The translations under genes and the position numbers were made by a program. A stretch of 64,000 nucleotides of DNA from an uncultured Clostridia bacterium. Its GTDB lineage: Bacteria > Bacillota > Clostridia > Christensenellales > Borkfalkiaceae. Position 1 is the first letter of the stretch. Every line of letters begins with the position of its first letter. Below, in pieces: positions 36,208 to 59,361 of this stretch. The notes under the pieces are model-generated. The model was given only the letters and a program-made list of their open reading frames with translations, was not told the DNA's origin and searched no databases. The stretch spans positions 55,781 to 119,780 of the forward strand of contig CALWCH010000003.1 of assembly GCA_944376335.1 (NCBI GenBank), in the 5' to 3' direction.

Positions 36208-36273
36208 AAGTTTCCGCCCGTTCGGGCGCGTTCCTCCCCTCAGTATTTTAGAAAAAGGCGATCGAACCCTTGT

Positions 36274-42838: not shown

Positions 42839-42921
42839 ACCGCTATTGTATGGAGGGGCGGGCAAAGATATGCACTCTAAAAGACGGGCGCGCCCCGCCG
42901 CGAACAGTCCGAAAGACGGGC

Positions 42922-42988
42922 GCGCCCCGCCGCGGCAAGAGCCGCGGCGGGGCGCCAAAATATCGCCCGCGGCGACAAGCCGCGGGCG
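42922..42988 (-). terminator. Tandem GC-rich hairpins downstream of the ABC exporter operon
   Basis: 10-bp stem cgcccgcggc/gccgcgggcg (42964-42988) is followed on the minus strand by ATATTTTGG. A second perfect 15-bp stem gcgccccgccgcggc/gccgcggcggggcgc lies at 42922-42955. Confidence 0.6.
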
Positions 42989-43001
42989 CTCCAAAAAAAG
43001 T

Positions 43002-45920: not shown

Positions 45921-46118
45921 TCAGTTGATGCCTTCGTTGAGCTTTTGAAGAAGGGCGTCGAGGTCCTCGCCGTGAACGGCGACCGCCTGAGCGACGGTCT
46001 CCCCATGCGCGAGCGCACAGCCGAAGCAGTGCATGCCCGCCGAGAGAAGGATCTCGGGCGCGTCGGGGTTGAGTTCCAGCACTTCGGAAATAAGCGTATC
46101 CGCCGTGATCTTTGCCAT
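45921..46118 (-). CDS. DUF1858-like small protein (hybrid-cluster-protein-associated redox disulfide domain)
   Basis: Trimmed to ATG at 46116-46118, 65 aa. MAKITADTLISEVLELNPDAPEILLSAGMHCFGCALAHGETV matches my recollection of the DUF1858 CxxC domain. Confidence 0.65.
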   Translation of the reverse strand: MAKITADTLISEVLELNPDAPEILLSAGMHCFGCALAHGETVAQAVAVHGEDLDALLQKLNEGIN

Positions 46119-46193
46119 GACAATACTCCTTTTGTTCTCTATATGCGTATTATACCACAAATCGGGCAAAGTTACAACTCATTTTGCATATTT

Positions 46194-46652
46194 TTATCCG
46201 AGCCCCAAAAGCCAATAGACGAGCCCGACCGCCGCCCCCGCCGTCACGCCGAATACGAGGATGGGCCCCGCGACCAAAAACATCTTCGCCGCCATGCCGT
46301 AGACATAGCCCTCCGTCTTAAATTCGATGGCGGGCGAGGCAACCGAATTTGCAAACCCCGTGATGGGCACGATGCTCCCCGCACCCGCCTGCTTGCCGAT
46401 GCGGTCATACACCCCGAGGCCCGTTAAAAGCGTTCCCAAAAAGATGAGAATGACGGAGACCGTGCCCGCAAGTTCCTCCCCCGAAAGCCCTGCGAACTCC
46501 AACAAAAAGCGGAAGAACTGCCCGATGCAGCAGATGAGCCCGCCGACGAGAAAGGCCCTCCCGCACGTTGCAAAGTGCTTGGTGGGCGGCGAGAGCGAAC
46601 GGACGTACTTCAAATAATTTTGATTACGCCTTGCAAGCTCGCCCTTTGTCAT
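46194..46652 (-). CDS. spoVAC: Stage V sporulation protein AC
   Basis: 152 aa, four TM segments. GRAFLVGGLICCIGQ, GAGSIVPITGFANS and VFGVTAGAAVG are typical SpoVAC strings. GGGGGAGAG RBS. Confidence 0.88.
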   Translation of the reverse strand: MTKGELARRNQNYLKYVRSLSPPTKHFATCGRAFLVGGLICCIGQFFRFLLEFAGLSGEELAGTVSVILIFLGTLLTGLGVYDRIGKQAGAGSIVPITGFANSVASPAIEFKTEGYVYGMAAKMFLVAGPILVFGVTAGAAVGLVYWLLGLG

Positions 46653-46804: not shown

Positions 46805-47293
46805 TCACACGTACGAGGCTAAAAGGTCGTAGAGCGTTGCATAGTACTCGCCGAGATAGGTGCGCGCGAGGGAGTCCATTGCATACGCCTGAAGCCGCTC
46901 GCCAGCCGACGGCATCTTCATGTAGTAGGCGCGCACGACGATAAAGCGCTGCGAATAGGATAGGTCGTAATTGGGGTTCGCGGGGTAGCTGTAGGGCCCC
47001 TGCTCGTTGCCCTCGCCCGCATCCAAGTCGTAGGCGATCTGATAGAGCAAATCTTCCTTGACGACGGCGATCTTTCCCTCCGCCTCGTCGTCGATGGCGT
47101 CCGAACGCTCCTCAAAGTACGTCGAGCGCACCGTGCCGTTTGTCAGAAGCTCCTTGAAGATCTCCCCCTTCTCCCGCTCCGCTTCGGCAAGAATTTCGTT
47201 CTTCTCCGCCTGCGCCGCGCGCACCATCGCCATCTGCGCGGCGTTGAGATCGGAAAACTCCTCGTCCGAAAGGTCGATGATATCGATGATCAT
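46805..47293 (-). CDS. Phage-cluster protein, acidic with N-terminal helical/coiled-coil region; unknown
   Basis: 162 aa. MIIDIIDLSDEEFSDLNAAQMAMVRAAQAEKNEILAEAEREKGEIFKELL. ATGA overlap with the upstream gene. Last gene of the cluster. Confidence 0.6.
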   Translation of the reverse strand: MIIDIIDLSDEEFSDLNAAQMAMVRAAQAEKNEILAEAEREKGEIFKELLTNGTVRSTYFEERSDAIDDEAEGKIAVVKEDLLYQIAYDLDAGEGNEQGPYSYPANPNYDLSYSQRFIVVRAYYMKMPSAGERLQAYAMDSLARTYLGEYYATLYDLLASYV

Positions 47294-48546
47294 GCTCTCC
47301 CCTCCCGCACTTCAAGCACGACGGAGCAAAGCCGCGCTCCCGCCGACCCCTTCACGCTCAGCGCAAAGCTGCTCCCCTTCAAGGGCGGGGAAAAGCGCAG
47401 TTCCTCGCCCGCATTGCCCCGCACATGGCGGCACATCCCCCTTTCCGTGCTCGCCGCAATGCGGAAACAGCCCTTTCCTTCCACCTTCACGCCGTCTAAA
47501 CAGCGCGCCTCGGAGAGGCCGTACTCTGAAAGCGGAAATTCAACTCTCATCTCCTTCTCCGCCGCCGCGCCCTCGTCGAGGGCATACAGCTTCCCGCCGC
47601 GCAGAAAGTGAAACGCTCCCCCGCCGACGACGCTCTCCGCGCTCAGCCTTAAAAAGCTCGCCTTCTCTCCCGCAAGCGAGAAGATGCACCGCTCCCCTTC
47701 CTTCAGGGTGATGGCGGCAAAATAGGCCTCCCCCGCCGCCGCGCCCAAGACGGGCTTTTCAAAGTCGATGTGCTCCGCGCCGCATTCTTCGAGAGGGAAG
47801 AGCGTATTCCCCTTGATGGCAAACAGCCCGTCCTTCGCCGCAAACACGACGCGGATGCCGCAGCTCACCGCCGAGGCGGGCACCAGCCCCGTAAAGGCGC
47901 AGTTGAGCTCCTCCGCCTCGAAGTCCATAAAGTCCCCGGGCGCATAGAGCGCCGTCACGCCCCGCTCCCGCAGGAGCAGCAGCCGCCCCTTGTAGGGAAT
48001 GAGCCGCAATATTTCGCCGCCCCTCGAAGGCAGGTCGATGCTCCCCGCACCGTCCGCGGATACCGTCCAATCTGCAGCATCCAGCGGTACAGAATAGGAG
48101 ATCGTCTCCCCCGAGGCGATAAAGAGCCGCTCCTTGAACACCGCCATGCAGCTGCCCGCGGGCGCGCCCGTCACCTTTGAGGCGCCCGTCTCCCCGAGCG
48201 CATACAGTCCCGATGCGGTCAGCGCGTAGTACTCCGTGCCCGTCTCGCCCAAATAGGAGAGGACTTCCACGGGTTTTTCCGCAAGCGTAAAGCTACTTTC
48301 GCCCTTTGTAAGCACGGTCCCTGCGAGCGTAAAGAGCGCGCCGTCCTCCGTCCGAAAGACCGCCTCCGTGCCCGAAGGGAGCGTTTCAACGAGCTTTTTC
48401 CCGCCCGTCTCACAGAGCGCACCCCCGCGCTCTGCAGCATTGAGGGCAAACACCGCCGTCCTTCCGCTCCGTTCCGCAAAGAGGGCGGGCTTTATTCGCA
48501 CCCGCTTTCTTTTGCGTTCGGGGAATACGAGCCGCTTTGCGATCAT
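47290..48546 (-). CDS. Phage-cluster protein, beta-rich with repeated G-x-L-[FY]-A motifs; unknown (tail-hub position)
   Basis: Trimmed to ATG 48544-48546 (ATGA overlap with upstream stop), 418 aa. Recurrent strings DGALFTLAG, SGLYALGETG, ERLFIASGE, KDGLFAIKG, GEAYFAAI, GGKLYALDEG. Confidence 0.6.
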   Translation of the reverse strand: MIAKRLVFPERKRKRVRIKPALFAERSGRTAVFALNAAERGGALCETGGKKLVETLPSGTEAVFRTEDGALFTLAGTVLTKGESSFTLAEKPVEVLSYLGETGTEYYALTASGLYALGETGASKVTGAPAGSCMAVFKERLFIASGETISYSVPLDAADWTVSADGAGSIDLPSRGGEILRLIPYKGRLLLLRERGVTALYAPGDFMDFEAEELNCAFTGLVPASAVSCGIRVVFAAKDGLFAIKGNTLFPLEECGAEHIDFEKPVLGAAAGEAYFAAITLKEGERCIFSLAGEKASFLRLSAESVVGGGAFHFLRGGKLYALDEGAAAEKEMRVEFPLSEYGLSEARCLDGVKVEGKGCFRIAASTERGMCRHVRGNAGEELRFSPPLKGSSFALSVKGSAGARLCSVVLEVREGRA

Positions 48547-49103
48547 ACCCACCTCCTCGGGCGGACGGAGAGCGCCCTTCTCGGCACGCCCACCGCCCGC
48601 ACGGCGTCTAAAAAGCGGCTGTCCCACAGCTTCGCCTCTTCAAACATCCCGCGGGAGAGGCAGAACTCCCTCGCAACGCCGAAGGAGACGAGCCGCGCCG
48701 TCACCCTGCCGCCCAATTCCCCCTCTCCGTCGATGCCCTTGGGTTCAGGCGAATAGCAATAGCGGACGCGCACCCTCCCGCTTGCAACGGCGGGAAGATA
48801 CAGCCCCTCCTTCCTCGGCTCAAAGGCGGTCTCCCCGCCCATCCGCTTCACCGAGCGCACCCCCGCGGGCGCATAGGAAAAGCTGCTCCACGCCACCATA
48901 TGCCCCTCCGCCTCGAGCACTTCCTCCGCCTTCAGGGGAAGATAGTCGATGGCGAGCTCATTCTCGACGAGGTTATAGCACCTTACAAGGGAGGCAAGCT
49001 CCCCCTTGGGCGCCGTATTTTCGGGGAGCGCCTCCAATTCCTTCAACAGGTCTGCGCGGCCGAGATGCTCTGCGGCAAGCGCCAAAACTTCCTTGACCGT
49101 CAT
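48543..49103 (-). CDS. Phage-cluster protein in head-tail adaptor position; unknown
   Basis: Trimmed to ATG 49101-49103 (AAGGGGGTGG RBS), 186 aa. Starts MTVKEVLALAAEHLGRADLLKELE. Immediately follows the capsid gene. Confidence 0.55.
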   Translation of the reverse strand: MTVKEVLALAAEHLGRADLLKELEALPENTAPKGELASLVRCYNLVENELAIDYLPLKAEEVLEAEGHMVAWSSFSYAPAGVRSVKRMGGETAFEPRKEGLYLPAVASGRVRVRYCYSPEPKGIDGEGELGGRVTARLVSFGVAREFCLSRGMFEEAKLWDSRFLDAVRAVGVPRRALSVRPRRWV

Positions 49104-49120
49104 TCTCGGCCACCCCCTTG

Positions 49121-50275
49121 TTACTCGGTGATGCCCGTGAGCATGCCCTGCCCGACGGGGCGATAGCACATGAGCTCGGCGTACTTGACGAGCGTCGCCG
49201 TGTAGACGGGCTTCCCGGGGATCTGCTTTAAGACCTTGCCGTCCTCGCCCTCCAGCCACTGCCAGTCGCAGAGCTGATGCAGCCCGAAGTCGCCCGTATT
49301 CAAAAGGTACATCGTACCCTTGGGGCAGAACCTGTCCGCGACGACGGGAATGCCGTTGAAGCTCAGCGCCCTATAACCGCCCTGCAAGTCGACGGAGTCC
49401 GTCTTCTTATACGCCGCGAGCGCCGAGATGAGCTTGCGGCGCACCCCGCGCGAGCAGACGATGAAGTTGACCTTGCCGCCGCCGTATTCCTCCACGCCGT
49501 CGATGGCCTCCTGCAGCGCATCCTCGCTCATCGCCCCGAAGGACGTATCGGTATAAGGGGTGAGCCAGCTCTTGCCCTCCCTGTCGATGCCGTAGAGCTC
49601 GTCCGCCTCAAAGATGGCCTTAAGGCCTGTAATTTCGAGGTCCTTGGAATTCTGCAGGTAGATGACGTCGTTCTGTGCAGCGCCCGAGAGCGTGCCCTCA
49701 AAGGTGATTTGATTGTTCGCGCGGTCGACGGAGGCAATGACGGCGCCCGCCGTGTCGCGCGTGTTCGCGGTGTACACGTCCACCACCATGCCCTCTGCAA
49801 GGTTGATGGTGCTGTCCACGGTGTATTCGGTATTACCCGAAGAGGGAATGCCGGTGATCGTCGCGAGCTTGCCCGTGCCGTCGCCGAAGAGCATGCGCGA
49901 GAAGTTGAACGCGCTCGTCCTCACGAGGCTGTCCATCTCATCGTTCAAAAGGTTGACGAACGCGCCCTCGTTGCTCTCCGCAGCGCGGATGGCCTTGTCG
50001 CTCACCTCGATGGTGCCGTAGAGGTTTTTAAGGGGCGCAACGAACTGCGCATAGCCCGAAGAGAGGGCTTTCGGAAGTTCCCCGTCCTCCGTGCCCGCGC
50101 CCACGCCGCCGTTGACGCCGAAGCGCACCGCCTTTCTCACATCCCTCCCCCACACGTCGGAAGTGGTCTTCCTGATCTCGGCAAGCAGCGGATTCACCGT
50201 CTTGTCGAGCTGTTCGCTCACCACGCCGAGGTAGTAGGACTTCAATACGCTGTCTGCAGTCTGAGTCGTGATCAT
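49121..50275 (-). CDS. Phage major capsid protein (subfamily undetermined)
   Basis: 384 aa. Sits after the scaffold-like gene. Sequence (LKNLYGTIEVSDKAIRAAESNEGAFVNLLNDEMDSLVRT...) reads like capsid proteins I recall. Call rests on size and synteny. Confidence 0.75.
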   Translation of the reverse strand: MITTQTADSVLKSYYLGVVSEQLDKTVNPLLAEIRKTTSDVWGRDVRKAVRFGVNGGVGAGTEDGELPKALSSGYAQFVAPLKNLYGTIEVSDKAIRAAESNEGAFVNLLNDEMDSLVRTSAFNFSRMLFGDGTGKLATITGIPSSGNTEYTVDSTINLAEGMVVDVYTANTRDTAGAVIASVDRANNQITFEGTLSGAAQNDVIYLQNSKDLEITGLKAIFEADELYGIDREGKSWLTPYTDTSFGAMSEDALQEAIDGVEEYGGGKVNFIVCSRGVRRKLISALAAYKKTDSVDLQGGYRALSFNGIPVVADRFCPKGTMYLLNTGDFGLHQLCDWQWLEGEDGKVLKQIPGKPVYTATLVKYAELMCYRPVGQGMLTGITE

Positions 50276-50278
50276 ACA

Positions 50279-50722
50279 TTATTCTCCTTTCTTTGCTTGT
50301 CTGAGGTAGCCGAGCGCCAGCCTGCCCGCCTCCTCGATGGTCTTTGGCCGCAGTTGGGGCGCGGAGATGCCCGCACCCGAGCGCGTCATGAGCGGTACGC
50401 GGGGAAGTGCAATGCCTTCGGACGGCGCAGGCTTTTCCGCCCCCGCCCCTTCCTCGGGCGCAGTCCGGACTGCGCGCTCCCCCTCTTCGCTCACTTCGCA
50501 TGGAAGTGTTTCGCGCGCCGAGGGCTGCTCCTGTTTCACGGGAGCCGCCTTGTTCGCCTCTTCGAGTGCCCGAAGCCGCTGGCTGCGGCGGGTAAATTCC
50601 GCTTCGAGCGCCTCATACGCGCGCAAGAGGGCATCGACCGACTTAAACTTGGAAGGAAGCTCCCCAAGAGCGCCAAGTTCCCCCTCGGGAACTTCCCTTT
50701 CTGCCGTGTTCTCCTCTTTCAT
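50279..50722 (-). CDS. Putative scaffolding protein
   Basis: 147 aa. Acidic/helical (FKSVDALLRAYEALEAEFTRRSQRLRALEEANK). Located between portal and capsid. AGGAGG RBS. Confidence 0.55.
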   Translation of the reverse strand: MKEENTAEREVPEGELGALGELPSKFKSVDALLRAYEALEAEFTRRSQRLRALEEANKAAPVKQEQPSARETLPCEVSEEGERAVRTAPEEGAGAEKPAPSEGIALPRVPLMTRSGAGISAPQLRPKTIEEAGRLALGYLRQAKKGE

Positions 50723-50734
50723 ACCATTCCTCCT

Positions 50735-52522
50735 TTATTTTTCAAGCGCCCTGTGTGCACGGATGTGCGCCGCAAGCCGCGCTTTGACCGTCTCATCCTG
50801 CTCGCCGCCCGAAAGCAGCGCGCGCGTGTGCTCGGTGATGTGCAGTGCGTGGTCGTCATACTCGTCGGGCTCCACATCCCTCTCCCGAAGGTCGATGTTC
50901 TCCCGCTCCGCCTTTTTGAGGTGCAGGTGCGAGATATCCCTTGCACTCTCGAAGGAGCCGTACCCGAACGCATCCAAAATTTTGTTGCGCGTGTCGTCCG
51001 AGAGCTTCCCCTCGCCGTCCGTCAGAAGTCCCGCCTGGAAGAGCGACAAGATCTCTTCCTTGACCTCGGCGGGCGTCCGCTCGTACTCCGTCAAGAACTC
51101 CACGTCGTCTGCCGAGATGTCGCTTCTGTCGAAGTAATAAAGCTCCGTCTCGCCCCCTTCGCCCGTCATGCTGAGAAGCCGCTTGTTTGCCGCAAACTGC
51201 TTGTAAAGGTGCAGGATCTGCTTCCCGACCGCACGCAGCGCACGCTCCACGCTCTCCACGCTCGCCTGCATGCGGTTGGTGTCCTGTTCTAACAGGAGCT
51301 GCAGCCCCGTCGCCGACGTCACGCGGTAGACGGCGGAAGAGGTGCGCCCCAGCTCGCTCATGCCCGAGACGAGGATGAATTCGTTGGCGATGCGTTCCTC
51401 TTCCTCGGAAAAGTCGGAGGGAAGCGACCCGAAGTCGAGGAAGTGCGGCTCGTTCGCCCCCTGCCGGTACACGATCACCCGCCCGGGCGCAAGCCCCTCC
51501 TCGGCAAGTTCCTCTGCATCGAGGGAGCCGTCCTCGACCGCGAGAACGCCCGTCGAGAGGCGGTTCAAAAACTCCTGCTTTCTGTTTCTCACGGCGTTGT
51601 AGGCGCGCTGCAGGGGGATCATCCTGTCGATGATGCTCGCCCCGTAAAAGCTCCCCGGCACTTCCGTGCACGTCTGCCGCACGAAGGGGAAGATGCGCTC
51701 CCCCCTGTCCCCGTTCTCATAAGGGAGCGGCCCCTCATAGAGCAGCACGCCGCCCGCCGCAATTTCCAGTCTCCCCTCGGGGTGCGCCGTATCTGGGCGG
51801 GTATAGCGCTCGATGAGGATCTCCGCATCCTCCAGCATCCCTTCCGCAACTTCCACCTTGCGCCCCGCAAGCTCCGCGCCGAACCGCTCATAGATCTCCT
51901 TCACGGGCACCGCCTTGGCGTGGATGAGGCTTCTCACATCGTCGAGGCTCTCCGCCGAGAGCGAGTCGGGGTACACCTCGAAGGGCGAGAGCGCCGCAAC
52001 GTTCACATCCCCCTCTCTTCTCGGCTGTTCGCCGTCCGCGCCGATGAGCTTTCCCTCGTCGAAGTTCCACACCACCTTATAAAAGGACGTGCCGCACGCC
52101 TCCGACCAGAGCGTCGCCCGCGCGATGACGCCGTCCAGATCTAGCTTCCCCCGCGCCGCCTTCAAAATGTTCGAAGAGAGCCGCGCCGTCTTCATGTCCT
52201 CGGGGCTATTTGAAAACGCCCTCACATTCAGCGTCGGCCGCACCTTGGCGAGGCGGGCAAGGCGCGCGTCTACGGTGGGCGCGATGTGGTTGTAGCACCC
52301 CCGCGCCTGCCAGAAGTACGCCGCTTCCTCCTCTTCCACCTCGCCCACGGGCGAGATGCCGCAGTACTGGTTTCCCTTCAAAAAATTCATGTTGAGCTGC
52401 CAGCCGCGCTCCAAACTCTTCCGCGCCTGCTGCCGCTCCAGAAAGTCGCGCAGGATGCCCTCGGCAAGCGCCTTCTTCCGCGCCTCTTCCATGCGCTCCG
52501 CCGTCCTTTCACTCTCCATCAT
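50735..52522 (-). CDS. Phage portal protein
   Basis: 595 aa. Portal-typical size and position after TerL. AGGAGG RBS before tandem ATG ATG. Exact start uncertain (52522/52519). Confidence 0.75.
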   Translation of the reverse strand: MMESERTAERMEEARKKALAEGILRDFLERQQARKSLERGWQLNMNFLKGNQYCGISPVGEVEEEEAAYFWQARGCYNHIAPTVDARLARLAKVRPTLNVRAFSNSPEDMKTARLSSNILKAARGKLDLDGVIARATLWSEACGTSFYKVVWNFDEGKLIGADGEQPRREGDVNVAALSPFEVYPDSLSAESLDDVRSLIHAKAVPVKEIYERFGAELAGRKVEVAEGMLEDAEILIERYTRPDTAHPEGRLEIAAGGVLLYEGPLPYENGDRGERIFPFVRQTCTEVPGSFYGASIIDRMIPLQRAYNAVRNRKQEFLNRLSTGVLAVEDGSLDAEELAEEGLAPGRVIVYRQGANEPHFLDFGSLPSDFSEEEERIANEFILVSGMSELGRTSSAVYRVTSATGLQLLLEQDTNRMQASVESVERALRAVGKQILHLYKQFAANKRLLSMTGEGGETELYYFDRSDISADDVEFLTEYERTPAEVKEEILSLFQAGLLTDGEGKLSDDTRNKILDAFGYGSFESARDISHLHLKKAERENIDLRERDVEPDEYDDHALHITEHTRALLSGGEQDETVKARLAAHIRAHRALEK

Positions 52523-52769
52523 CTTCCTCCTTCAAGCGGGCAAGAAGCCGCTGTTTTTCCTTCTCCAACGCCTCGTCGCTCAAGCCGCTATAGTCCTGCC
52601 CTTCCATCAGGAGCCGCACCGCCTTCAAATCGGGCGGGATGTCCTTCCGCGTCTCCCGCCGCTTGACGAGCGTCAATTCGCCGTCCTGCACGCCGTATTC
52701 CTCGGTCACTTCCTCCACGGAACACCCGAGCGCGACCTTCAGAATGGCGTCTCTCACCTTTTCTTCCAC
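52509..52769 (-). CDS. Small phage-cluster protein between TerL and portal; unknown
   Basis: 86 aa. GTG start with GGGGGAGAG RBS. Contains IPPDLKAVRLLMEG, reminiscent of small-terminase strings, but it lies downstream of TerL. 14-nt overlap with portal start. Confidence 0.45.
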   Translation of the reverse strand: MEEKVRDAILKVALGCSVEEVTEEYGVQDGELTLVKRRETRKDIPPDLKAVRLLMEGQDYSGLSDEALEKEKQRLLARLKEEDDGE

Positions 52770-52784
52770 ACTCTCCCCCTTGTC

Positions 52785-54224
52785 TTAATGCGGCCGCCTG
52801 CCCCGCTTCAGGGCACGCATGAGCCGCTCCTTCTCCCGCCCCACGTCCGTGAGCACCTTCGTCTCCTGATGGGCGGGCCTCGTCATCAGATAGTACCTCA
52901 GTTCATCGAGCGCATGGTCCTCCTTCTTCTCGGGCCGATCCCCCTTCCCCCAAAAGTACCCCTTCATCTCGCGGATGAGATTGGTACAGCTTCGGAAGAT
53001 ATAGAGATCGGGCCACCCGTTCCCCCGTTTTAAATAGCTCTTCACCCGCGCGATGCCCGCGAACATCTCCTTGTCGACGCGCGCATCAACTAAAATTCCC
53101 CGCTCATAGAAGAGCTCCGAAACGCTCTTTGCCGAAGAGAGCGTCCGCTGCCCCGCCGCCGGATCGATGAGCGCCCGCACTCTCCCCGCCCCGTCCTTCT
53201 TCCAGCCCAAGGCGTCGCAAATTTCGTGGATGCGCCCTGCATGATAGTCGATGTCCTCGCCCGCCTTGTAGTGCTCCGCAACGACGTAGACGTTCCCGTC
53301 GTAATCGACACAATACCAGTGCGCGGAGAGCGGGTTCCTCAGCCCCGGGTCGATGGAGATGTTGTCCTGCCAGCTCTCGGGCACCTCGAAGGGGTCGATG
53401 ACGTGCACGCTCTCCTCAAATTCGGGGTAGACGAGCCCCTCGCGCCTCGCAAACCGCCCGTACCGCCGCGACTGCAGCGCCGTCTCGTCCATCGTCTGCT
53501 CTAAAAGAGCGATCTCCCTCTTGGAGAGATAGGGGTTATCCGACCACTCCATGAACTCATACCAAACCTCGGGGTCGTTCTTCTTGTTGAGGTAGATGTC
53601 GTCATAGAGAAAGGTCAGCCCCTTCAAGGGGGTCATCGTGCCGAAGATATCCCCGCACTTATCCAAAACGCGCATGCGGCACTCTTCATAGATATCCTTG
53701 GGCGGCTCCTCGTCGAACCACACAAAGTCCAAGGAGCTCCCCTGAAACTTCTCCCGCCCCTGGTCGCAGCTCTTAAAGCCGATCGTGCCCGTGCCGCCCG
53801 TCTCGTTCCTCAACACGATCTGGTCGATGACGCCCGATTCGGGGCTGTCCTTCCTCCCGCTCAGCATGACGATATCGAGGATCTGATCGCGCCTCAGATA
53901 GGAGAGCACCTTCTTCTGCGCCACATCCCGCTGCACCTGCTGCGAGAGAGAGACCACCCACCCGAACACATTCGCCCGGTTCTTGCGGTAGGGATGCACG
54001 CCGCGCGCCATCCACACCGCCTCCACGGCGCCGCACTCCGTCTTGCCCGAGCGGTTGCCCCCAAACACCCAGCGGTTGCGCTTCTTGCAGCGGTGAAAGG
54101 CCATCTGCTTCTTATGCACCCTTCTCCCCTTGTTGTACTGCGCAAGCCTGTCTCCCGCCGCCCGCCTCTTCTGCTCCGCCTCGATGGCGGCGATCATGTT
54201 GATGATTTCGTTCATATTCGCCAA
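52785..54224 (-). CDS. Phage terminase large subunit
   Basis: 479 aa. Walker A WVFGGNRSGKTECGA, Walker B SLDFVWFDEEP, C-terminal nuclease-like half. Confidence 0.88.
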   Translation of the reverse strand: MANMNEIINMIAAIEAEQKRRAAGDRLAQYNKGRRVHKKQMAFHRCKKRNRWVFGGNRSGKTECGAVEAVWMARGVHPYRKNRANVFGWVVSLSQQVQRDVAQKKVLSYLRRDQILDIVMLSGRKDSPESGVIDQIVLRNETGGTGTIGFKSCDQGREKFQGSSLDFVWFDEEPPKDIYEECRMRVLDKCGDIFGTMTPLKGLTFLYDDIYLNKKNDPEVWYEFMEWSDNPYLSKREIALLEQTMDETALQSRRYGRFARREGLVYPEFEESVHVIDPFEVPESWQDNISIDPGLRNPLSAHWYCVDYDGNVYVVAEHYKAGEDIDYHAGRIHEICDALGWKKDGAGRVRALIDPAAGQRTLSSAKSVSELFYERGILVDARVDKEMFAGIARVKSYLKRGNGWPDLYIFRSCTNLIREMKGYFWGKGDRPEKKEDHALDELRYYLMTRPAHQETKVLTDVGREKERLMRALKRGRRPH

Positions 54225-54268
54225 AACCTCTTATCCCCCGCTCCCCCTTTTGGCTTAAGATAGCGCCT

Positions 54269-54961
54269 ATGAAAGCACTCCTTCTTCTCATGGCGTCTCT
54301 CCTTCTGCCCCCGCTTCCCCTCTCCGTCTCCGCCGAAGAACTCCCCGCCCCCGCGTCCGAAGTGTACGCCGTCGCCGCCCGCTCCGACGTGTGGCTGTAC
54401 GCCGAGGAAAGCGAAGAGAGCGGCCTCTTCCTGCTCCCGTACACCTACTATGTGCGCGTTTTAGAGCGCGGCGAGGAATACTCTTCCGTCGTCTACGGCG
54501 AGGATATTGCCCCCTACCGCACCGTCGAGGGGTACTGCAAGACGGACATGCTCACCTTCGTCGGCTTTATCCCCGAGCGCCCCTTCTTAAAGCTGGAAGT
54601 CACCGTCACCTATACCGTCGAGGGCGCCGCCTCCGAGATGGGCAACGGCACCTTCGACGAGATCGAGCGCTCCTTCCACTACTACGGCACGAGCTACCTC
54701 GGCACCCGCCGCTACTACTACGTCCTCTCCGACGGCGTGTTCGACTACATCCCCGCAGAGCGCGACGTTACGTTCGAGCTCAACACCGACTACCTTGCAG
54801 AGACCGTCGCCCCCGTGCCCGAAGAGCCCGCACCCGAGCCCTCCGCAGCGCTCTCCCCCGTCGGCATCGCCGCGCTCATCGTCGGCATCGCCGCGCTCTC
54901 GGCGATCGTCTTTTTCGTGCTGCGCGGAAGAAAGCCCGCCCCCTCCGACGAGGAACTCTGA
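54269..54961 (+). CDS. Secreted, C-terminally membrane-anchored protein with SH3b-like N-domain; unknown
   Basis: 230 aa. Signal peptide MKALLLLMASLLLPPLPLSVSA. C-terminal TM VGIAALIVGIAALSAIVFFVL plus RGRK. Strong protein-like, C-ending codon usage. No obvious SD. Confidence 0.65.
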   Translation: MKALLLLMASLLLPPLPLSVSAEELPAPASEVYAVAARSDVWLYAEESEESGLFLLPYTYYVRVLERGEEYSSVVYGEDIAPYRTVEGYCKTDMLTFVGFIPERPFLKLEVTVTYTVEGAASEMGNGTFDEIERSFHYYGTSYLGTRRYYYVLSDGVFDYIPAERDVTFELNTDYLAETVAPVPEEPAPEPSAALSPVGIAALIVGIAALSAIVFFVLRGRKPAPSDEEL

Positions 54962-55461
54962 CCGCCGAACAGCGGCCTTCCGCTGCGCCGCTGCACGAGC
55001 TTTCTCTCCCACCCGTTCATGAGCGCCTTTAAGATGGTCATGTAGGGGGAAAACCCCTCAAAGTCACGCAAAAACGCCTCTTCGGTACAGCCCCGCCGCT
55101 GCATACGGCAGCAGAGCCGCGACAAAAGCTGCTTCTGCTTGCGGAAGTAGCTCCGCTCCGAGCAGGTGATCGTCCTGCCCGAAAGCCGGCTCTTCCTGCG
55201 GAAGTACTTGTACTCCAATAGGAAGAGCTCCTCCTCGCTGCAATAGGAGATCGCCCGCTCGAGCTGCTCCTTCCAGCGGAGCAGGCACTCCGCATGCGCC
55301 ATGTCCGCCGCAATGCTCTCCATGATGGCAAGGGTGTCCATCGGATGCTTGAAGGAGAGGCTCGCCCGCACCTTCGCACCGACGCGCACCGCCTCCGAAA
55401 GTTTCTCCGCATGCGGGTACGCATACAGCAGCACCCGCATATAATCATACTTGTCTCTCAT
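54790..55461 (-). CDS. Phage-associated HTH-like protein (late regulator- or small-terminase-like); C-terminal ~60 aa antisense to 54269-54961
   Basis: 223 aa. EELFLLEYKYFRRKSRLSGRTITCSERSYFRKQKQLLSRL looks like a sigma-r4/ArpU-RinA-type HTH. GAGAGGA RBS. The tail is low-complexity (SSSSEGAG...GSGAGSSGTGA). Confidence 0.45.
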   Translation of the reverse strand: MRDKYDYMRVLLYAYPHAEKLSEAVRVGAKVRASLSFKHPMDTLAIMESIAADMAHAECLLRWKEQLERAISYCSEEELFLLEYKYFRRKSRLSGRTITCSERSYFRKQKQLLSRLCCRMQRRGCTEEAFLRDFEGFSPYMTILKALMNGWERKLVQRRSGRPLFGGQSSSSEGAGFLPRSTKKTIAESAAMPTMSAAMPTGESAAEGSGAGSSGTGATVSAR

Positions 55462-55673
55462 TGCTATTCCGTCCTCTCATGCCGAAACACGAACGTTTGT
55501 TTACGCTATTATGATAGCACGAAAAACAGGCACCCGTGCGCCGATATGCCAAAATTCTCTGATTTTCCCCGAATTTTTTTCCGCGCCCGCAGCGTCTTTC
55601 CGCCTTTTTTACGCCCGTCCATCAAAAGCCCCGCTCTCAAAGGGAAAATGGAGAGGTTTTCCCCTGCAATCTC

Positions 55674-55702
55674 TTGTCTTTTGCGCGCGCGCGTGTTATA
55701 AT
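55674..55702 (+). promoter_or_regulatory. Extended -10 promoter placed for a leaderless transcript of the 834-aa gene
   Basis: TTGTCT (55674-55679), 17-nt spacer ending in TGT, TATAAT (55697-55702). The ATG at 55709 lies 6 nt after the -10. No SD between them. Confidence 0.5.
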
Positions 55703-55708
55703 TGTCAT

Positions 55709-58213
55709 ATGAAAACGCGCACGAAACCCATCATCGCCCTCATAGCGGCGCTCCTTTTATCGCTCCTTGCGGGGTGCTTCCTCTCCCTTCCCGGGGCACT
55801 CACGGCATCCGCCGTTGCGGCGCCCTCCCTCTTCCTTCCCGGCTCGTACGAGGAATACCTTCCCCTCTCCTTCCCCACGGACGCCGCAATGACGGAGGAC
55901 TACATCGCCGTTGCCGACGGCAGCACCCTCTATCTCTACGACCGCAGCGAGGGCAGCTACACCGCCTACACCCACCGCGGCAGCCTCTCCAAGCTTGCGT
56001 TCACCTCGGACGGCAGGCTGTTCTTCTCCGACCAGAACGCCCAGCTGTACCGCTACGACTTTTCGCGCGGCGAGGCGATCCTGCAGGAGAACGTTCCCTG
56101 CGCCACCTTCCTCATCGCGGAGAACACCCTCTACACGGCGGCGATCGCGAGCAATTCAACGACGCTGTATGCCATCCCGTGCGACAGCACCCAAATCTCC
56201 TTCGACCGTGCCGTACTCATCGACAACGTTCCCTCCCCCGCGGGCGCCTCTCCCCGCCTCGCCTACGAGAGCGGCATCCTCTACTGCGCGTTCAACCATC
56301 AGGTGTACGGCTATGCCCATTCTGAGACGGGCTACAGCCGTGAACCCCACTACCTTGCAGGCTCCTCCACGGACGTCACCGGCCTTTCGGCCTTTATCTC
56401 GCACGAGGGCGATTTCTACTACACCGTCAACGGCACGCTCGAGCGCGACGGGCTGTACCGCACCGTGCTCGACGGCAGCAGCGTCCGCCTCTTTGCGGGC
56501 AGCGGCTTTGTCGCCCTTCTCTCCTATAACGGCACCCTCTATGCCGTGCAGAACGGCTCTGTGCGCGCCTTTTCCCTCTCGGAGGACGCGGCATCCCTCA
56601 CGGGCTATGAAATAGGCGCGGGCTCTGACGCCCTCAACCGCATCTCGGATGCGGGCGAAACGGTGCGCGCGGGCGATCTCCTCGTCATTGCAGACGAGGG
56701 AAACCGCCGCGTGCTCGTCTACGACAGCTCGTCGGAGAGCTACACCGCCTACCCCACCGACGGCATTCCCGCCTGCGTCGCAACGGACGGCGACAGCTTC
56801 GCCGTCAGCGTCGGCAACGTCATCTATGTCTACGACCGCGGCGAGAGCAAGCCCCGCTATACCCACACGGCGGAGAGCACCGTCTCGGGCATCACCTCGG
56901 TGTACGGCACCTACTACTATGTGACCGAACACAGCTACTACGGCATCGCCGAGGAAGGCGTGCGCGAATTCCCCCGCTCGGGCACCTCCGTTCCCGTCGG
57001 CATCACGAGCGACCTTCTCGGCAACATCTATGTCGCGACCGCCGTCTCCCCGGGTCAGACCGCTCTCGTCTACCGCTATACCGAGAGTGAATTTATGGAC
57101 TACGCCGCCACGGGCACGCAGGTCGAGGGCTTCACGCTCCCCGGCAATTTCTGCTCCCTCCGCGCCGACTACGAGGGCAACCTCTACTACCTTTCGGGCA
57201 GCGCGCTCTATCAGAACGGCGCGCGGCTGGAGTCCTTCGACGTCTCCGCCGTCCTCTACCACGGCGGCGCAGCGGCGCCCTCGCCCGTCTCCTTCGCCCT
57301 CTCCTTCGAGGACGGCACCGTCTATCTCAACTACGGCGACTTCCTGCTCTCCGTCCCCCTCTCCTTCCCCAACCTCGGGGCAGTGCCCGCGGGCGGGCTC
57401 TACGAGCAGCTCCGCACCCCGGCGAGCGCAGACGCGCTCTCCTATGTCTCCGTCGCGGAGGGGGCTGTAGGCGTCGCCATCGACCTCACCGCGCTGAACA
57501 GCGAGAGCACCGCCTTCTCCTACGCCTCCCACAGCCGCATCAAGGGCGGCAGCGCGCTCGTCCTGGGCGAAACGGAGGAATTCCTGCTCATCGCCGTCTA
57601 CGAGGATCACGCCTACACGGTGATGCTCGTTCCCGAAGCAAACTGCACGCCCGTCCTCGCCTCCGCCGAGGAGGGAAGCGGCACCTACTTCATCTCGAGC
57701 GACGTCTCCCTCACGAGCAATCCTCTCGTCTTAGGCGCCCTCACCCTCACCTCGCTCCCGCGCGGCACCGCCGTCACCCTCCTTCACGAGGTCACGCCCC
57801 CTTCGGGCCCCGCCTATGCGGAGGTCTCCTACGGCGAAGGCGGCCGCGGCTACATTCCCCTTTCCTACCTCAGTACCGCCTCGCCCGATCTTCCCGAGAA
57901 CGACAGCTACAGCCTCGCCTATCTCAAGGCGGATGCAGACGGCGTCACCTTCTACGCCGCAGACAACAGAAACAACACCGTGCGCGTCACCGATCGCATC
58001 CAAGTCAAGGTCTACGAAGCGGAAAACGGCGCCCTCAACGTATGCTTCACCGACGAGGCGGGCACGCTATATACAGCACAGGTGACGGAGGATATGCTCG
58101 AGGCGGGCGGGGAAGACGCCCTCCGCATCAGCATCATCATCATTCTCTGCGTCATCGCCGTGGGCATCGGCGCGGCATATGTGCTTCTCGTGCCAAAGAA
58201 GAATAAAAAATGA
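55709..58213 (+). CDS. Envelope protein: lipobox signal, beta-propeller-like repeats, SH3b-like domain, C-terminal TM anchor; unknown
   Basis: Trimmed to ATG 55709, 834 aa. MKTRTKPIIALIAALLLSLLAGC. Many LY/YxYD beta-strand repeats (STLYLYD, AQLYRYD, GTLYAVQNG, VIYVYD, NLYYLSG). C-terminal IIIILCVIAVGIGAAYVLLVPKKNKK. Confidence 0.75.
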   Translation: MKTRTKPIIALIAALLLSLLAGCFLSLPGALTASAVAAPSLFLPGSYEEYLPLSFPTDAAMTEDYIAVADGSTLYLYDRSEGSYTAYTHRGSLSKLAFTSDGRLFFSDQNAQLYRYDFSRGEAILQENVPCATFLIAENTLYTAAIASNSTTLYAIPCDSTQISFDRAVLIDNVPSPAGASPRLAYESGILYCAFNHQVYGYAHSETGYSREPHYLAGSSTDVTGLSAFISHEGDFYYTVNGTLERDGLYRTVLDGSSVRLFAGSGFVALLSYNGTLYAVQNGSVRAFSLSEDAASLTGYEIGAGSDALNRISDAGETVRAGDLLVIADEGNRRVLVYDSSSESYTAYPTDGIPACVATDGDSFAVSVGNVIYVYDRGESKPRYTHTAESTVSGITSVYGTYYYVTEHSYYGIAEEGVREFPRSGTSVPVGITSDLLGNIYVATAVSPGQTALVYRYTESEFMDYAATGTQVEGFTLPGNFCSLRADYEGNLYYLSGSALYQNGARLESFDVSAVLYHGGAAAPSPVSFALSFEDGTVYLNYGDFLLSVPLSFPNLGAVPAGGLYEQLRTPASADALSYVSVAEGAVGVAIDLTALNSESTAFSYASHSRIKGGSALVLGETEEFLLIAVYEDHAYTVMLVPEANCTPVLASAEEGSGTYFISSDVSLTSNPLVLGALTLTSLPRGTAVTLLHEVTPPSGPAYAEVSYGEGGRGYIPLSYLSTASPDLPENDSYSLAYLKADADGVTFYAADNRNNTVRVTDRIQVKVYEAENGALNVCFTDEAGTLYTAQVTEDMLEAGGEDALRISIIIILCVIAVGIGAAYVLLVPKKNKK

Positions 58214-59279: not shown

Positions 59280-59287
59280 ATTTTCAT

Positions 59288-59361
59288 GCGAAAAGCCCGC
59301 CTGTCGGCGGGCTTTTCGCATGAAAGAAGGCGCGGGCGCTTTTTGCAAGCGCCCGCGCCTT
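59288..59361. terminator. Two tandem hairpins forming a bidirectional terminator between convergent GH43 and asparaginase genes
   Basis: 14-bp stem gcgaaaagcccgcc/ggcgggcttttcgc (59288-59319). 13-bp stem aaggcgcgggcgc/gcgcccgcgcctt (59327-59361). Confidence 0.75.

Follow-up and report, generated by a model that had tools for sequence, protein, structure and literature searches.

A podovirus-like GTA-like locus, FpGTA I, is known from Faecalibacterium prausnitzii, whose particles are roughly 40 nm in size and contain ~8.5-9 kb of host DNA, and GTA-like packaging of 4-7 kb has been reported for Christensenellaceae with no locus assigned (PMC12946183, Nat Commun 2026). RcGTA, CcGTA and BaGTA of Alphaproteobacteria are siphovirus-like: their heads are of the HK97 type, and they possess a protease as well as a tail tube and tape measure. 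PBSX of Bacillus subtilis occupies roughly 28 kb and is myovirus-like; its tail is contractile, and it has a repressor of its own (Xre) as well as genes for lysis. The cf-PICIs are mobile and carry an integrase with att sites, modules for regulation and replication, and connectors for the tail of a helper siphovirus.

The locus described here is located in a window of 64,000 nt (contig CALWCH010000003.1 of assembly GCA_944376335.1, positions 55,781-119,780) from an uncultured Clostridia bacterium. A preliminary description regarded a GTA-like or satellite-like capsid-making unit in a spore-forming Firmicute as not described before, a view that is outdated in the light of FpGTA I and the packaging reported for Christensenellaceae.

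Gene content of the cluster

The cluster comprises ten genes: g1, plus230, TerL, g3, portal, scaffold-like, capsid, g7, g8 and g9. The earlier coordinates of the minus-strand ORFs were right when checked against ORF positions, they account for the two ATGA overlaps (47290-47293 and 48543-48546) as well as for the one of 14 nt (52509-52522), and an independent gene caller returned the same cluster products (594, 147, 384, 186, 418 and 162 aa). The nine genes had been seen as an uninterrupted co-directional series, in which the plus-strand gene plus230 (54269-54961), lying between g1 and TerL, was overlooked.

Elsewhere in the window the genes are common host genes (miaA, mutL, mutS, carB, arg genes and others). 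Inspection of the 64 kb by eye revealed no integrase, tape measure or sheath and no ORF of the lysin type, in agreement with the preliminary description, and neither the cluster nor the 64 kb contained a receptor-binding protein, fibre, holin or endolysin. No excisionase, replication or primase gene, tRNA or Rfam match was found in the window, and the proposed check for att-like direct repeats around the cluster revealed none. The codon usage of the cluster is largely host-like, as had been judged by eye: RSCU values of cluster and host genes correlate with r = 0.90 (0.99 for two halves of the host set against each other), while the GC content is 62.1% vs 59.3%. This GC excess of ~3 points and the RSCU fit under the host-host value were counted against the GTA-like reading. 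A neighbour of the cluster is one SpoVAC/SpoVAEB-family gene, with no spoVAD or spoVAE seen adjoining it; just this gene stands behind the earlier designation of the host as spore-forming.

For comparison, the 80 best loci from Gallimonas, Christensenellaceae and other Clostridia MAGs were used, among them 55 contigs that span the whole cluster.

Packaging and head proteins

Profile searches confirmed the proposed identities of TerL, portal and capsid. The large terminase TerL (52785-54215, minus strand), a packaging ATPase and nuclease, matched PF03237 (6.7e-13) and phrog_2 (2e-29), and its start is most likely the ATG at 54215, giving a product of 476 aa. In 80/80 TerLs there is no variation at the catalytic residues of Walker A (G, G, N, R, G, K, T), in the acidic core DEE of Walker B, in the TMTP motif or at the aspartates of the nuclease, and dN/dS is 0.10-0.15; the PBSX-type TIGR01547 model gave 0.062 with the TerL of the window. 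The portal (50735-52522, minus strand, about 595 aa) is of the P22/SU10 type, with matches to PF16510 (P22_portal; 3.3e-19), PF23899 (3.4e-8) and phrog_156 (5.9e-38) and dN/dS of 0.12-0.16. The major capsid protein (49121-50275, minus strand, 384 aa) is of the podovirus type (HK97 fold family), matching NCBIfam NF033394 'capsid_maj_Podo' at 5.5e-75 (252 bits vs a cut-off of 80) and phrog_14242 at 6.8e-56. Its relatives occur in 447 GTDB species and form 331 representative clusters at E <= 1e-30; all relatives with identities as low as 30% belong to NF033394, and the nearest capsid of an isolated phage shares 31% identity.

The 86-aa product of g3 (52509-52769, minus strand), whose existence had been noted with no role named, is a short TerS-like protein according to PHROG matches of its family: phrog_309 'terminase small subunit' was matched by 21 of 31 members (best 1.2e-6) and phrog_23444 by 6. 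The match of the window's own copy was weak (0.015), and a full DNA-binding domain was not recognisable in it. An acidic, helical protein of 147 aa (50279-50722, minus strand) is scaffold-like by position and composition only, with zero family matches in profile searches; its motif GKFKSVDALLxAYxxLEAEFTRRSQ is also kept in low-GC relatives, and dN/dS is 0.33-0.54.

Portal vertex and tail hub

The three ORFs downstream of the capsid gene had been listed as unknowns. The first, g7 (48543-49100, minus strand, 186 aa), occupies the position of the adaptor (P22 gp4) and is a putative adaptor by this position only; its start at 49100 is backed by homologue coverage and gene calls, and zero PHROG, PDB-sequence or gp4 matches were obtained. 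The AlphaFold2 model of g8 (47290-48546, minus strand, 418 aa; pLDDT 77.9) consists of a beta-propeller and a C-terminal beta domain, and is that of a podovirus tail nozzle or hub with a predicted gp10-like fold. Foldseek matched it to the Pa223 tail (5.4e-15) and P22 gp10 (8eap_D, 6.1e-14, TM 0.62), followed by Pan3, GP4, Pam1, Sf6, SU10 and T7 gp12, and phrog_3287 was matched by 22 of 35 family members. This is the fastest-evolving gene of the cluster (dN/dS 0.26-0.49). Since the 418-aa protein folds as a nozzle, the unit is not 'tail-less', as it had been called, and represents a head, a neck and a tail hub; the earlier argument from the P22 gene order is strengthened by the same fold.

The last gene, g9 (46805-47293, minus strand, 162 aa), lies in the position of P22 gp26 and encodes a long helical hairpin with a small aromatic-rich helical domain (pLDDT 82.6), for which no structural match was found in PDB or BFVD. 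Its family includes 605 clusters at 90% identity, the 120 matches listed span 162-172 aa, mean column identity is 68% and dN/dS is 0.12-0.21. Homologues of known function were not detectable in the searches for g7 and g9.

Regulatory region and membrane proteins

The g1 ORF (54790-55461, minus strand, 223 aa) encodes a protein whose HTH resembles region 4 of sigma-70 and which is a putative transcription activator. Conservation covers about 160 residues, with the family motif LSEEExFLLEYKYFRR..SERSYFRRQ; the C-terminal ~60 codons, which overlap an opposite-strand gene, are not conserved as protein. The product matched phrog_248 'transcriptional activator' at 0.0017, and Sigma70_r4_2 had two matches in the family scan (best 1.5e-6), which most likely belong to low-GC positional homologues, although the scan leaves members unnamed; dN/dS is 0.26-0.46.

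A candidate operator, a LexA-type (Cheo/SOS) box, is located at 55490-55503 (plus strand CGAAC-GTTT-GTTT, i.e. GAAC-N4-GTTT), 8 nt 3' of the g1 -10 element and 41 nt 5' of the g1 ATG. The clostridial LexA consensus is GAAC-N4-GTTY (PMC4234289). Of 64 loci, 61 have a (G/A)AAC-N4-GTT(C/T) box in the 200 nt that precede g1, at a background of 0.012 per 200 nt, and a box is also found in low-GC relatives; in one locus (L099) the lexA promoter carries the same box type. The motif suggests LexA control of g1. Exact GAAC-N4-GTTY was present in 47/63 boxes; AAAC in both half-sites (16/63) was counted against such control. The predicted extended -10 of g1, TGcTATCAT (55511-55519, minus strand), was read from the sequence; its consensus among relatives is TGnTATGAT, and its position is kept, by eye, in the upstream alignment. 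Nearly all 64 upstream regions contain a further element, TGGCATA ... GGCA-N-CCGT-N-TGTCA (55529-55551, minus strand), which in the window forms an imperfect palindrome or hairpin, the latter found in the terminator scan.

The plus-strand gene plus230 (54269-54961), divergent from TerL and convergent with g1, overlaps the final 172 nt of the 223-aa g1 ORF. It encodes a conserved single-pass membrane protein of 230 aa with a signal peptide, a beta-rich ectodomain and a C-terminal TM, for which no Pfam family was found. It is present in 63 related loci (dN/dS ~0.2), and low-GC relatives have a positional homologue. A -10-like TAAGAT (54256-54261) lies 7 nt ahead of its ATG, suggesting a leaderless mRNA. 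The other membrane protein gene, env920 (55709-58213, plus strand), is divergent from g1, with a TATAAT from the promoter scan (55697-55702) 6 nt ahead of its ATG, and encodes a membrane-anchored repeat protein of 834 aa, whose family search returned just a weak DUF5050 match. It is a co-conserved neighbour, adjoining the cluster in 61/80 loci, and its membership in the unit is uncertain: no homologue was detected in low-GC loci, L088 has a lipoprotein at the equivalent place and L095 has other genes upstream of its g1-like gene.

Conservation and selection

All ten genes are present in 54 of the 55 spanning loci, which belong to different species, and 52 passed a strict check of order and strand. 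Wherever the gene is not cut by the end of a contig, every copy of TerL (65), portal (73) and capsid (77) is a single ORF that covers at least 93% of the query. The recurring host flanks in the 80-locus set are env920 (61), spoVAC (46) and GH43 (36), and flanks are kept on both sides down to ~61% capsid identity. For TerL, portal and capsid dN/dS is 0.10-0.16, and it is well below 1 for every cluster gene. The related loci show same-locus conservation with purifying selection, which the preliminary description had named as support for domestication. The dS of the cluster is in the range of flanking host genes (0.4-1.0), a match that disfavours recent horizontal copying of one element. Pairwise distances of cluster genes and small flanking host genes correlate modestly (0.12-0.58), which was counted against the GTA-like reading, and co-phylogeny of the cluster with the host is not proven by these values. 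The low-GC relatives, which have additional genes for tail and holin, may themselves be true prophages, and this was likewise counted against the GTA-like reading.

Origin and possible function

The locus is probably a vertically inherited, domesticated remnant of a P22/SU10-like short-tailed phage, kept by the host as a working factory of GTA-like particles. Many species of gut Clostridia keep the gene set whole and in one chromosomal place, which argues for a host-kept device and against a dead prophage; as far as sequence can go, the retained GTA-like unit, one of the options considered earlier, is supported. LexA control, the action of g1 as an activator, the kind of DNA that is packaged, and the release of particles and delivery of their DNA we infer as follows. 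DNA damage would inactivate LexA, which may sit on the GAAC-N4-GTTT box overlapping the g1 promoter, and its loss would allow the sigma-region-4-like activator to be made. This activator might switch on the operon from TerL to g9, the weak promoter of which would have its -10 region in common with the divergent plus230. Procapsids would be assembled from the portal, scaffold and capsid proteins and filled with DNA by TerL and the truncated TerS-like protein, possibly in a headful-type manner of low sequence specificity, and the portal vertex would be closed by g7 (adaptor), g8 (nozzle) and g9. Any genes for receptor binding and lysis might lie elsewhere in the genome, like those of Faecalibacterium FpGTA. 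If this is true, a podovirus-derived, apparently SOS-controlled GTA-like locus is common to many gut Clostridia species.

A less probable but possible explanation is that the locus is domesticated and functional while its DNA-filled particles serve another host purpose with no productive DNA delivery, for example altruistic lysis or DNA release linked to SOS, action as killer or decoy particles like PBSX, or the export of damaged DNA. The authors of FpGTA voice the same caveat (PMC12946183), and PBSX provides a precedent of a conserved, SOS-inducible, DNA-packaging particle without DNA transfer. The cluster has no receptor-binding or fibre gene, and a simple GTA model leaves plus230 and env920, the conserved membrane proteins beside the cluster, without a role. 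However, a DNA-ejecting podovirus-type nozzle has been kept under selection, the nuclease and ATPase motifs of TerL are invariant, and the contractile tail that PBSX-type killing needs is absent here.

An improbable reading is that of a site-specific island or a mobile satellite (PICI or capsid-forming PICI-like) that makes its own heads, is re-inserted at the same site in each species and relies on a helper phage for tail fibres, lysis and induction. Head and packaging genes without fibres or lysis genes are found in some satellites, and IMG/VR classed 20 related contigs as viral; but the MCPs of these are on contigs up to 226 kb and are therefore chromosomal. The satellite option of the preliminary description fails because integrase, att repeats and replication genes are lacking, and it is further opposed by the absence of an excisionase, a primase and a tRNA target, by the shared flanks, by dS values like those of host genes and by the locus having its own podovirus tail hub in place of connectors for the tail of a helper. 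A functionless, decaying prophage, intact by chance or recently inserted, appears very unlikely: most phage modules are missing, and in one distant lineage (L091/L099) the copy ends after the capsid gene, but the intactness in 54/55 loci, the purifying selection on every gene, the invariant catalytic residues, the conserved regulatory box and dS like that of neighbouring host genes contradict this reading and, with it, the earlier suggestion of a surviving prophage core.

Comparison with known systems

The locus resembles FpGTA I in architecture, the two being compared by description. Both are chromosomal loci of ~9-10 kb with ~ten ORFs in gut Clostridia lineages, integrase-free and near-ubiquitous in the host group, and encode a TerS-like protein that lacks a DNA-binding domain, TerL, portal, a scaffold-position gene, capsid and podovirus-type tail proteins, including nozzles both matched to PDB 8eap (P22 gp10). 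The host orders differ, and FpGTA I is known from particles, proteome and DNA, the present locus from its genes. The FpGTA I capsid is annotated 'N4-gp56 family' and not NF033394 'capsid_maj_Podo'; in FpGTA I a gene annotated as Prp separates portal from capsid, and a protein annotated 'TolA' is abundant in the particles, against which g9, the antisense membrane gene plus230 and the LexA-type box are set here.

P22 (3-2-1-8-5-4-10-26) has TerL, portal, scaffold, coat, adaptor-position, nozzle and needle-position genes in the same order; the portal falls into the Pfam family named after P22 and the nozzle folds like gp10, although no sequence similarity of g7, g8 and g9 to P22 gp4, gp10 and gp26 was found. 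Unlike in P22, TerS follows TerL and is truncated, the ejection proteins (gp7, gp20, gp16), tailspike and gp14 are absent, the portal is shorter (595 vs ~725 aa) and the capsid families differ. The cf-PICIs are likewise small chromosomal units with their own capsid, portal and terminase and an incomplete tail, but their integrase, att sites, regulatory and replication modules, connectors and mobility have no counterpart in the present locus. PBSX, also of a Firmicute, is an SOS-inducible, defective phage-like, chromosomally conserved element that packages host DNA, properties suggested for the present locus by its genes, but it kills without transfer and its TerL is of another family.

RcGTA-type agents, like the present locus in the reading preferred here, are vertically inherited phage structural clusters under purifying selection in many species, without integration or replication genes and with a TerS without normal DNA recognition. 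They are tied to the response to DNA damage, have accessory genes at other places in the genome and possess GafA, a dedicated activator with sigma-like features, all of which may have its counterpart here, with g1 as the activator. In contrast to these agents, the locus belongs to another host phylum, is podovirus-like, with a putative scaffold but neither protease nor tube nor tape measure, and LexA apparently acts directly at the promoter of the activator.

Gene content of the cluster and its surroundings

The minus-strand ORFs reported for positions 46805-55461 in the preliminary description are present, and the same products (594, 147, 384, 186, 418 and 162 aa) were called independently in a public assembly that encodes an identical capsid protein. 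Their supposed arrangement as nine contiguous co-directional genes holds for the ORFs but not for the junction of g1, which encodes a 223-aa putative activator, with the TerL gene, where a plus-strand gene, plus230 (54269-54961), intervenes. The 230-aa product of plus230 has a signal peptide, a beta-rich ectodomain and a C-terminal transmembrane helix. The TerL gene most plausibly starts at ATG 54215, and the ten genes follow one another in the order g1, plus230, TerL, g3 (86 aa), portal, scaffold, capsid, g7 (186 aa), g8 (418 aa) and g9 (162 aa). Profile searches bore out the assignments of TerL (PF03237, 6.7e-13; phrog_2, 2e-29), of the portal, which is of P22/SU10 type (PF16510, 3.3e-19), and of the capsid (phrog_14242, 6.8e-56; NCBIfam NF033394 'capsid_maj_Podo', 252 bits against a cut-off of 80).

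Phage-derived content is confined to head, neck and nozzle genes and a regulator, and the rest of the 64 kb consists of host genes, including miaA, mutL, mutS, miaB, carB, genes of sugar transport and arginine biosynthesis, ABC transporters, an Amidase_3 gene, GH43 and asparaginase. No integrase, replication or primase module was found within the 64-kb window, no tailspike, fibre or ejection protein in the cluster or the window, and no receptor-binding protein in the window, which also contains no tRNA gene and no Rfam match. Att-like repeats, whose possible presence had been raised in the preliminary description, do not flank the cluster. A structural and packaging cluster without integration, replication or lysogeny modules, one hallmark by which a gene transfer agent (GTA) is recognised, is what the window holds.

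The SpoVAC/SpoVAEB-family gene (46194-46652) next to the cluster is accompanied only by a DUF1858 gene (45921-46169), with no adjoining spoVAD or spoVAE, and such a lone gene does not by itself establish the host as a spore former, as had been assumed. Relative to the cluster, this pair is inverted in some related loci (L008, L009, L011 and L012), and the spoVAC gene is absent from others; the adjacency is regarded as plain synteny. The Amidase_3 gene (N-acetylmuramoyl-L-alanine amidase, 42149-42994), about 4 kb from the cluster with ABC-transporter genes between, is syntenic in L001, L003, L007, L037 and L063 and could encode an ordinary autolysin. Directly after the GH43 gene, two perfectly matching 20-nt arms around a 4-nt loop form an inverted repeat (59282-59325), which probably terminates transcription from both sides, of GH43 and of the convergent asparaginase gene.

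Identity of the individual proteins

Of the 31 family members of g3, the short protein encoded between TerL and the portal, 21 match PHROG 309 'terminase small subunit' (best 1.2e-6); the matches cover only an internal part of the profile, and g3 is therefore regarded as a short TerS-like protein. The label 'tail-less', applied to the cluster in the preliminary description, has to be abandoned, since the AlphaFold2 model of g8 (pLDDT 77.9) has the fold of a podovirus nozzle or hub. The top Foldseek matches of this model were podovirus tail nozzle/hub proteins, with the Pa223 tail at 5.4e-15 and P22 gp10 (8eap_D) at 6.1e-14 and a TM score of 0.62, followed by Pan3, GP4, Pam1, Sf6, SU10, T7 gp12 and the crAss001 muzzle; in addition, 22 of 35 members of the g8 family match phrog_3287. 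A P22-type portal and a gp10-fold nozzle, two of the parts of a P22-like tail machine, are both encoded.

In a P22-like gene order, g7 would stand in the adaptor (gp4) position and g9 in the needle (gp26) position. No match for g7 was obtained in a profile search against PDB sequences, a PHROG scan of all family members or the comparison with P22 gp4, and the PDB-sequence profile searches with g8, g9 and g1 likewise gave nothing significant. Alignment of g7, g8 and g9 with P22 gp4, gp10 and gp26 by hhalign gave no match, which is uninformative for g7 and g9 because g8, which resembles gp10 by structure only, fails in the same comparison. Against gp32, gp33 and gp35 of Microbacterium phage Shocker, hhalign returned one marginal match, between g8 and gp33 (E = 1.5e-4, probability 52%). 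The 147-aa protein appears scaffold-like by its position and composition; a PHROG scan of all members of its family gave no usable match.

The g9 protein is among the best conserved of the cluster (mean column identity 68%) and forms 605 clusters at 90% identity, with lengths of 162-172 aa among the 120 matches listed. Its model is confident (pLDDT 82.6), comprising a long helical hairpin and a small helical domain, and had no structural neighbour in PDB or BFVD by Foldseek. The g1 protein aligns with its positional homologues in low-GC relatives; two members of its family, most likely the low-GC sequences, match Sigma70_r4_2 (1.5e-6), and the window copy has a weak match to a phage 'transcriptional activator' PHROG. 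A Pfam scan of the plus230 family members was empty.

Conservation and selection

A capsid scan with one genome per GTDB species found relatives in at least 447 species. The best 80 of these 447, from 93% down to 59% identity, all belong to uncultured Clostridia (Candidatus Gallimonas spp., MAGs named 'Christensenellaceae' and 'Christensenella sp.', and Ca. Scatosoma) from chicken, rabbit, ruminant, mouse and human gut. All ten genes lie on the same strands in 54 of the 55 loci of this set whose contig spans the cluster; an automated check of start order was passed by 52 of the 55, two others being flagged on ORF start order only. Leaving out copies cut by a contig end, all genes for TerL (65/65), portal (73/73) and capsid (77/77) in the 80 loci are single ORFs with at least 93% query coverage. 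The same host neighbours recur, namely env920, an 834-aa membrane protein gene divergent from g1 (61 loci), spoVAC (46), DUF1858 (41) and GH43 (36). All 80 TerL sequences keep the catalytic residues of Walker A, of the Walker B DEE and of the TMTP motif unchanged, and likewise the nuclease aspartates.

In comparison with the five closest species, dN/dS was 0.10-0.16 for TerL, portal and capsid, 0.12-0.21 for g9, 0.2-0.33 for g7, 0.26-0.49 for g8 and 0.33-0.54 for the scaffold, and dS of the cluster genes (0.4-1.0) equalled that of the flanking host genes. Codon usage is near that of the host without being identical to it (RSCU r = 0.90 versus 0.99 host-host), and the GC content is 62.1% versus 59.3% for the host. 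Pairwise distances of cluster genes and shared host genes were positively but modestly correlated (0.12-0.58); the test is weak, since no host genes other than very short ones are shared. These observations fit the long-term vertical inheritance of a functional unit, and inheritance of this kind under purifying selection across many host species is a further feature by which GTAs are recognised.

Predicted promoters and regulatory signals

Conservation upstream of g1 is striking, and the alignment of this region revealed three elements. The first, at 55529-55551 upstream of the promoter, reads TGGCATA ... GGCA-N-CCGT-N-TGTCA and is present in about 60 related loci; it is an imperfect ACAG-N8-CTGT-like palindrome, which in the window forms a hairpin followed by a T-run. 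The second is an extended -10 of the form TGnTATGAT (TGcTATCAT in the window, 55519-55511, minus strand), and the third, immediately after it, is a palindrome (G/A)AAC-N4-GTT(C/T). The window copy of this box (55491-55502, plus strand CGAAC GTTT GTTT) lies 41 nt before the g1 ATG. Of 64 loci, 61 have such a box no more than 200 nt from the start of g1, where the frequency in the remainder of these loci would predict 0.012 per 200 nt; 47 of the 63 boxes have the exact form GAAC-N4-GTT(C/T). LexA operators in Bacillus and Clostridium take this form (GAACnnnnGTTC and GAACnnnnGTTT; PMC4234289). A palindrome of this kind overlapping the promoter, as in genes of Firmicute LexA regulons, is what is found at g1. 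Boxes are also located upstream of g1-like genes in low-GC relatives, and the lexA promoter of L099, an IMG/VR contig, carries one of the same type (AAAC-ATAT-GTTC). From the conserved box and these two parallels we infer that g1 belongs to the SOS genes. Elsewhere in the 64 kb a GAAC-N4-GTTC box occurs just once, at 36264-36275 (GAACCCTTGTTC), in the short gap between the arginine-biosynthesis genes 35044-36207 and 36274-37131.

A by-eye reading of the promoters as recognised by a sporulation sigma factor was dropped, since the extended -10 and the LexA box fit better, and a sigma-54 reading of the TGGCATA element was rejected, as the window does not keep the GG-N10-GC spacing.

The TerL and plus230 starts lie back to back, 53 nt apart, and the gap contains a conserved heptamer TATCATA/TATGATA that is usable as a -10 in both directions. 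A -10-like TAAGAT stands 7 nt before the plus230 ATG (54256-54271), and a TATAAT 6 nt before ATG 55709 of env920 (55697-55711), in both cases with no Shine-Dalgarno sequence. Such spacing suggests, speculatively, that both mRNAs are leaderless, and ATG 55709 (834 aa) rather than TTG 55451 would therefore be the true start of env920. The arrangement also suggests, no less speculatively, that the plus230 promoter competes with that of the late operon. At their 3' ends plus230 and g1 overlap by 172 nt (54790-54961), as they do in L106 and L107, and the conserved-looking tail of g1 (..LPRRTKxAIAxTA..) is probably imposed by the transmembrane helix of plus230 encoded on the opposite strand.

Relatives in phages and viral collections

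Among 50,697 genomes of isolated phages, the closest capsids, at 31% identity, are those of Microbacterium phage Shocker and several Arthrobacter phages. The capsid family is large, with 331 representative clusters at E <= 1e-30. IMG/VR contains 20 related contigs (capsid identity 45-59%, GC 28-52%) with the same order of TerL, g3, portal, scaffold, capsid, g7 and g8; all 20 'viral' contigs are fragments of this type of cluster. Capsids of the contigs that were checked recur on contigs of up to 226 kb and are therefore chromosomal, so virome pipelines can misfile such loci.

The low-GC versions have a g1-like gene and a divergent plus230-like gene ahead of TerL. After the nozzle gene they encode large tail proteins (phrog_5302, 1.7e-32) or a holin (phrog_297, about 1e-15) in place of g9. 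Six of them (L087, L088, L090, L092, L095 and L096) have a further gene, of about 130 aa, located between the capsid gene and g7, and in these the nozzle gene is followed by two large ORFs (about 800 and 680 aa) or a phi-LC3-type holin, the first large ORF being the phrog_5302 tail protein. No g9 was detected in these six loci, and no relation was found between g9 and the large post-nozzle proteins of the low-GC relatives. The latter may be true prophages, or domesticated units that are more complete. In the L091/L099 lineage (IMG/VR contigs of 27 and 55 kb) the copy ends after the capsid gene. This is a decayed relative with an altered capsid C-terminus, followed by genes for a lipoprotein, a DprA/SLOG-like protein, a type I restriction-modification system and lexA.

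Origin and probable function

The preliminary description had offered two readings, the surviving core of a prophage or a retained GTA-like or satellite-like capsid-making unit. A remnant in decay is at odds with the 54 complete loci among 55 that span the cluster, the low dN/dS, the dS equal to that of the flanks and the invariant TerL residues; intactness, selection, dS and shared flanks together exclude it and make repeated independent insertion very unlikely. PICI-type satellites, including capsid-forming PICIs, and prophages are ruled out because integrase, att sites and replication or primase functions are missing from the 64-kb window.

The GTA-like reading is supported, as far as sequence analysis reaches. 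That the cluster is a domesticated, functional particle locus we regard as very probable, and the full GTA reading receives slightly more credence than doubt. As the most likely mechanism, an SOS signal would lead, with g1 as activator, to small podovirus-like particles in which cellular DNA is packaged, with receptor-binding and lysis functions probably encoded outside the window. For the packaging of essentially random host DNA, rather than of mainly the locus itself, an indirect hint comes from the truncated TerS-like protein and from the GTA-like packaging reported in Christensenellaceae.

Comparison with known gene transfer agents

To our knowledge, GTAs have been well characterised almost only in Alphaproteobacteria, and for gut Firmicutes we know of one recent case, FpGTA, besides unexplained GTA-like packaging in several families. 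FpGTA I of Faecalibacterium, described in a 2026 paper (preprint 2024), is a cluster of about 10 kb and ten ORFs encoding a TerS-like protein without a DNA-binding domain, TerL, portal, scaffold, capsid and short-tail proteins, and its particles of about 40 nm carry host DNA of about 8.5-9 kb (PMC12946183). Its fibres, receptor-binding protein and lysis genes (holin and endolysin) form a second operon about 125 kb away, and its nozzle was assigned through PDB entry 8eap in the proteome table (PMC12946183). The FpGTA TerL, portal and nozzle are RCH50852, RCH50851 and RCH50846.

Compared with the description and proteome table of that paper, the window cluster matches FpGTA I in gene content and order, including the gp10-like nozzle. 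Both nozzles were matched to 8eap. The capsid of FpGTA is annotated as 'N4-gp56 family' (2018 annotation), whereas NF033394 was the only match of the window capsid and of ten relatives down to 30% identity, and the window cluster lacks the Prp- and TolA-annotated genes of FpGTA. The window locus is not demonstrably an orthologue of FpGTA. The same paper reported GTA-like packaging in Christensenellaceae (HGM11616, 4.1 and 7.1 kb; QANA01, 6.3 kb), for which the responsible genes were not found (PMC12946183), and the window locus would be an obvious candidate.

All this might be combined into an ancient podovirus-derived GTA that is separate from FpGTA, vertically inherited in Christensenellales-like gut Clostridia, wired to the SOS response, endowed with two novel components and responsible for the packaging in Christensenellaceae; taken whole, this reading is tentative, and we think it more probable that it fails in some part. 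It would be spread over hundreds of species with relatives in low-GC Firmicutes, and the LexA box on the sigma-like activator g1 would wire it directly to SOS. The products of plus230 and g9 would be lineage-specific, without counterpart in known GTAs or phages: plus230, which has a -10 overlapping the one of the late operon, could possibly act as a transcriptional-interference switch, as a receptor or as an immunity factor, and g9, with its high conservation, would be at the tail tip. The cluster would then be the missing locus for the Christensenellaceae packaging.

The locus would be a second, apparently unrelated podovirus-derived one, found in at least 447 species and provided with a clear, testable regulatory signal, the SOS box on the activator. 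In that case short-tailed phages would have been domesticated repeatedly in gut Clostridia, and concrete candidate genes would be at hand for gene flow by capsids in Christensenellales and in the taxa around Gallimonas from the gut of chicken, rabbit and ruminants, with g1, LexA, g8, g9 and plus230 as experimental handles; this bears on GTAs, gene flow in the gut microbiome and phage domestication. Like the alphaproteobacterial GTAs, the cluster combines structural genes that are passed on vertically with a truncated TerS, a sigma-like activator and, putatively, a connection with DNA damage, but their ancestry lies in siphoviruses, whereas that of the window cluster lies in podoviruses.
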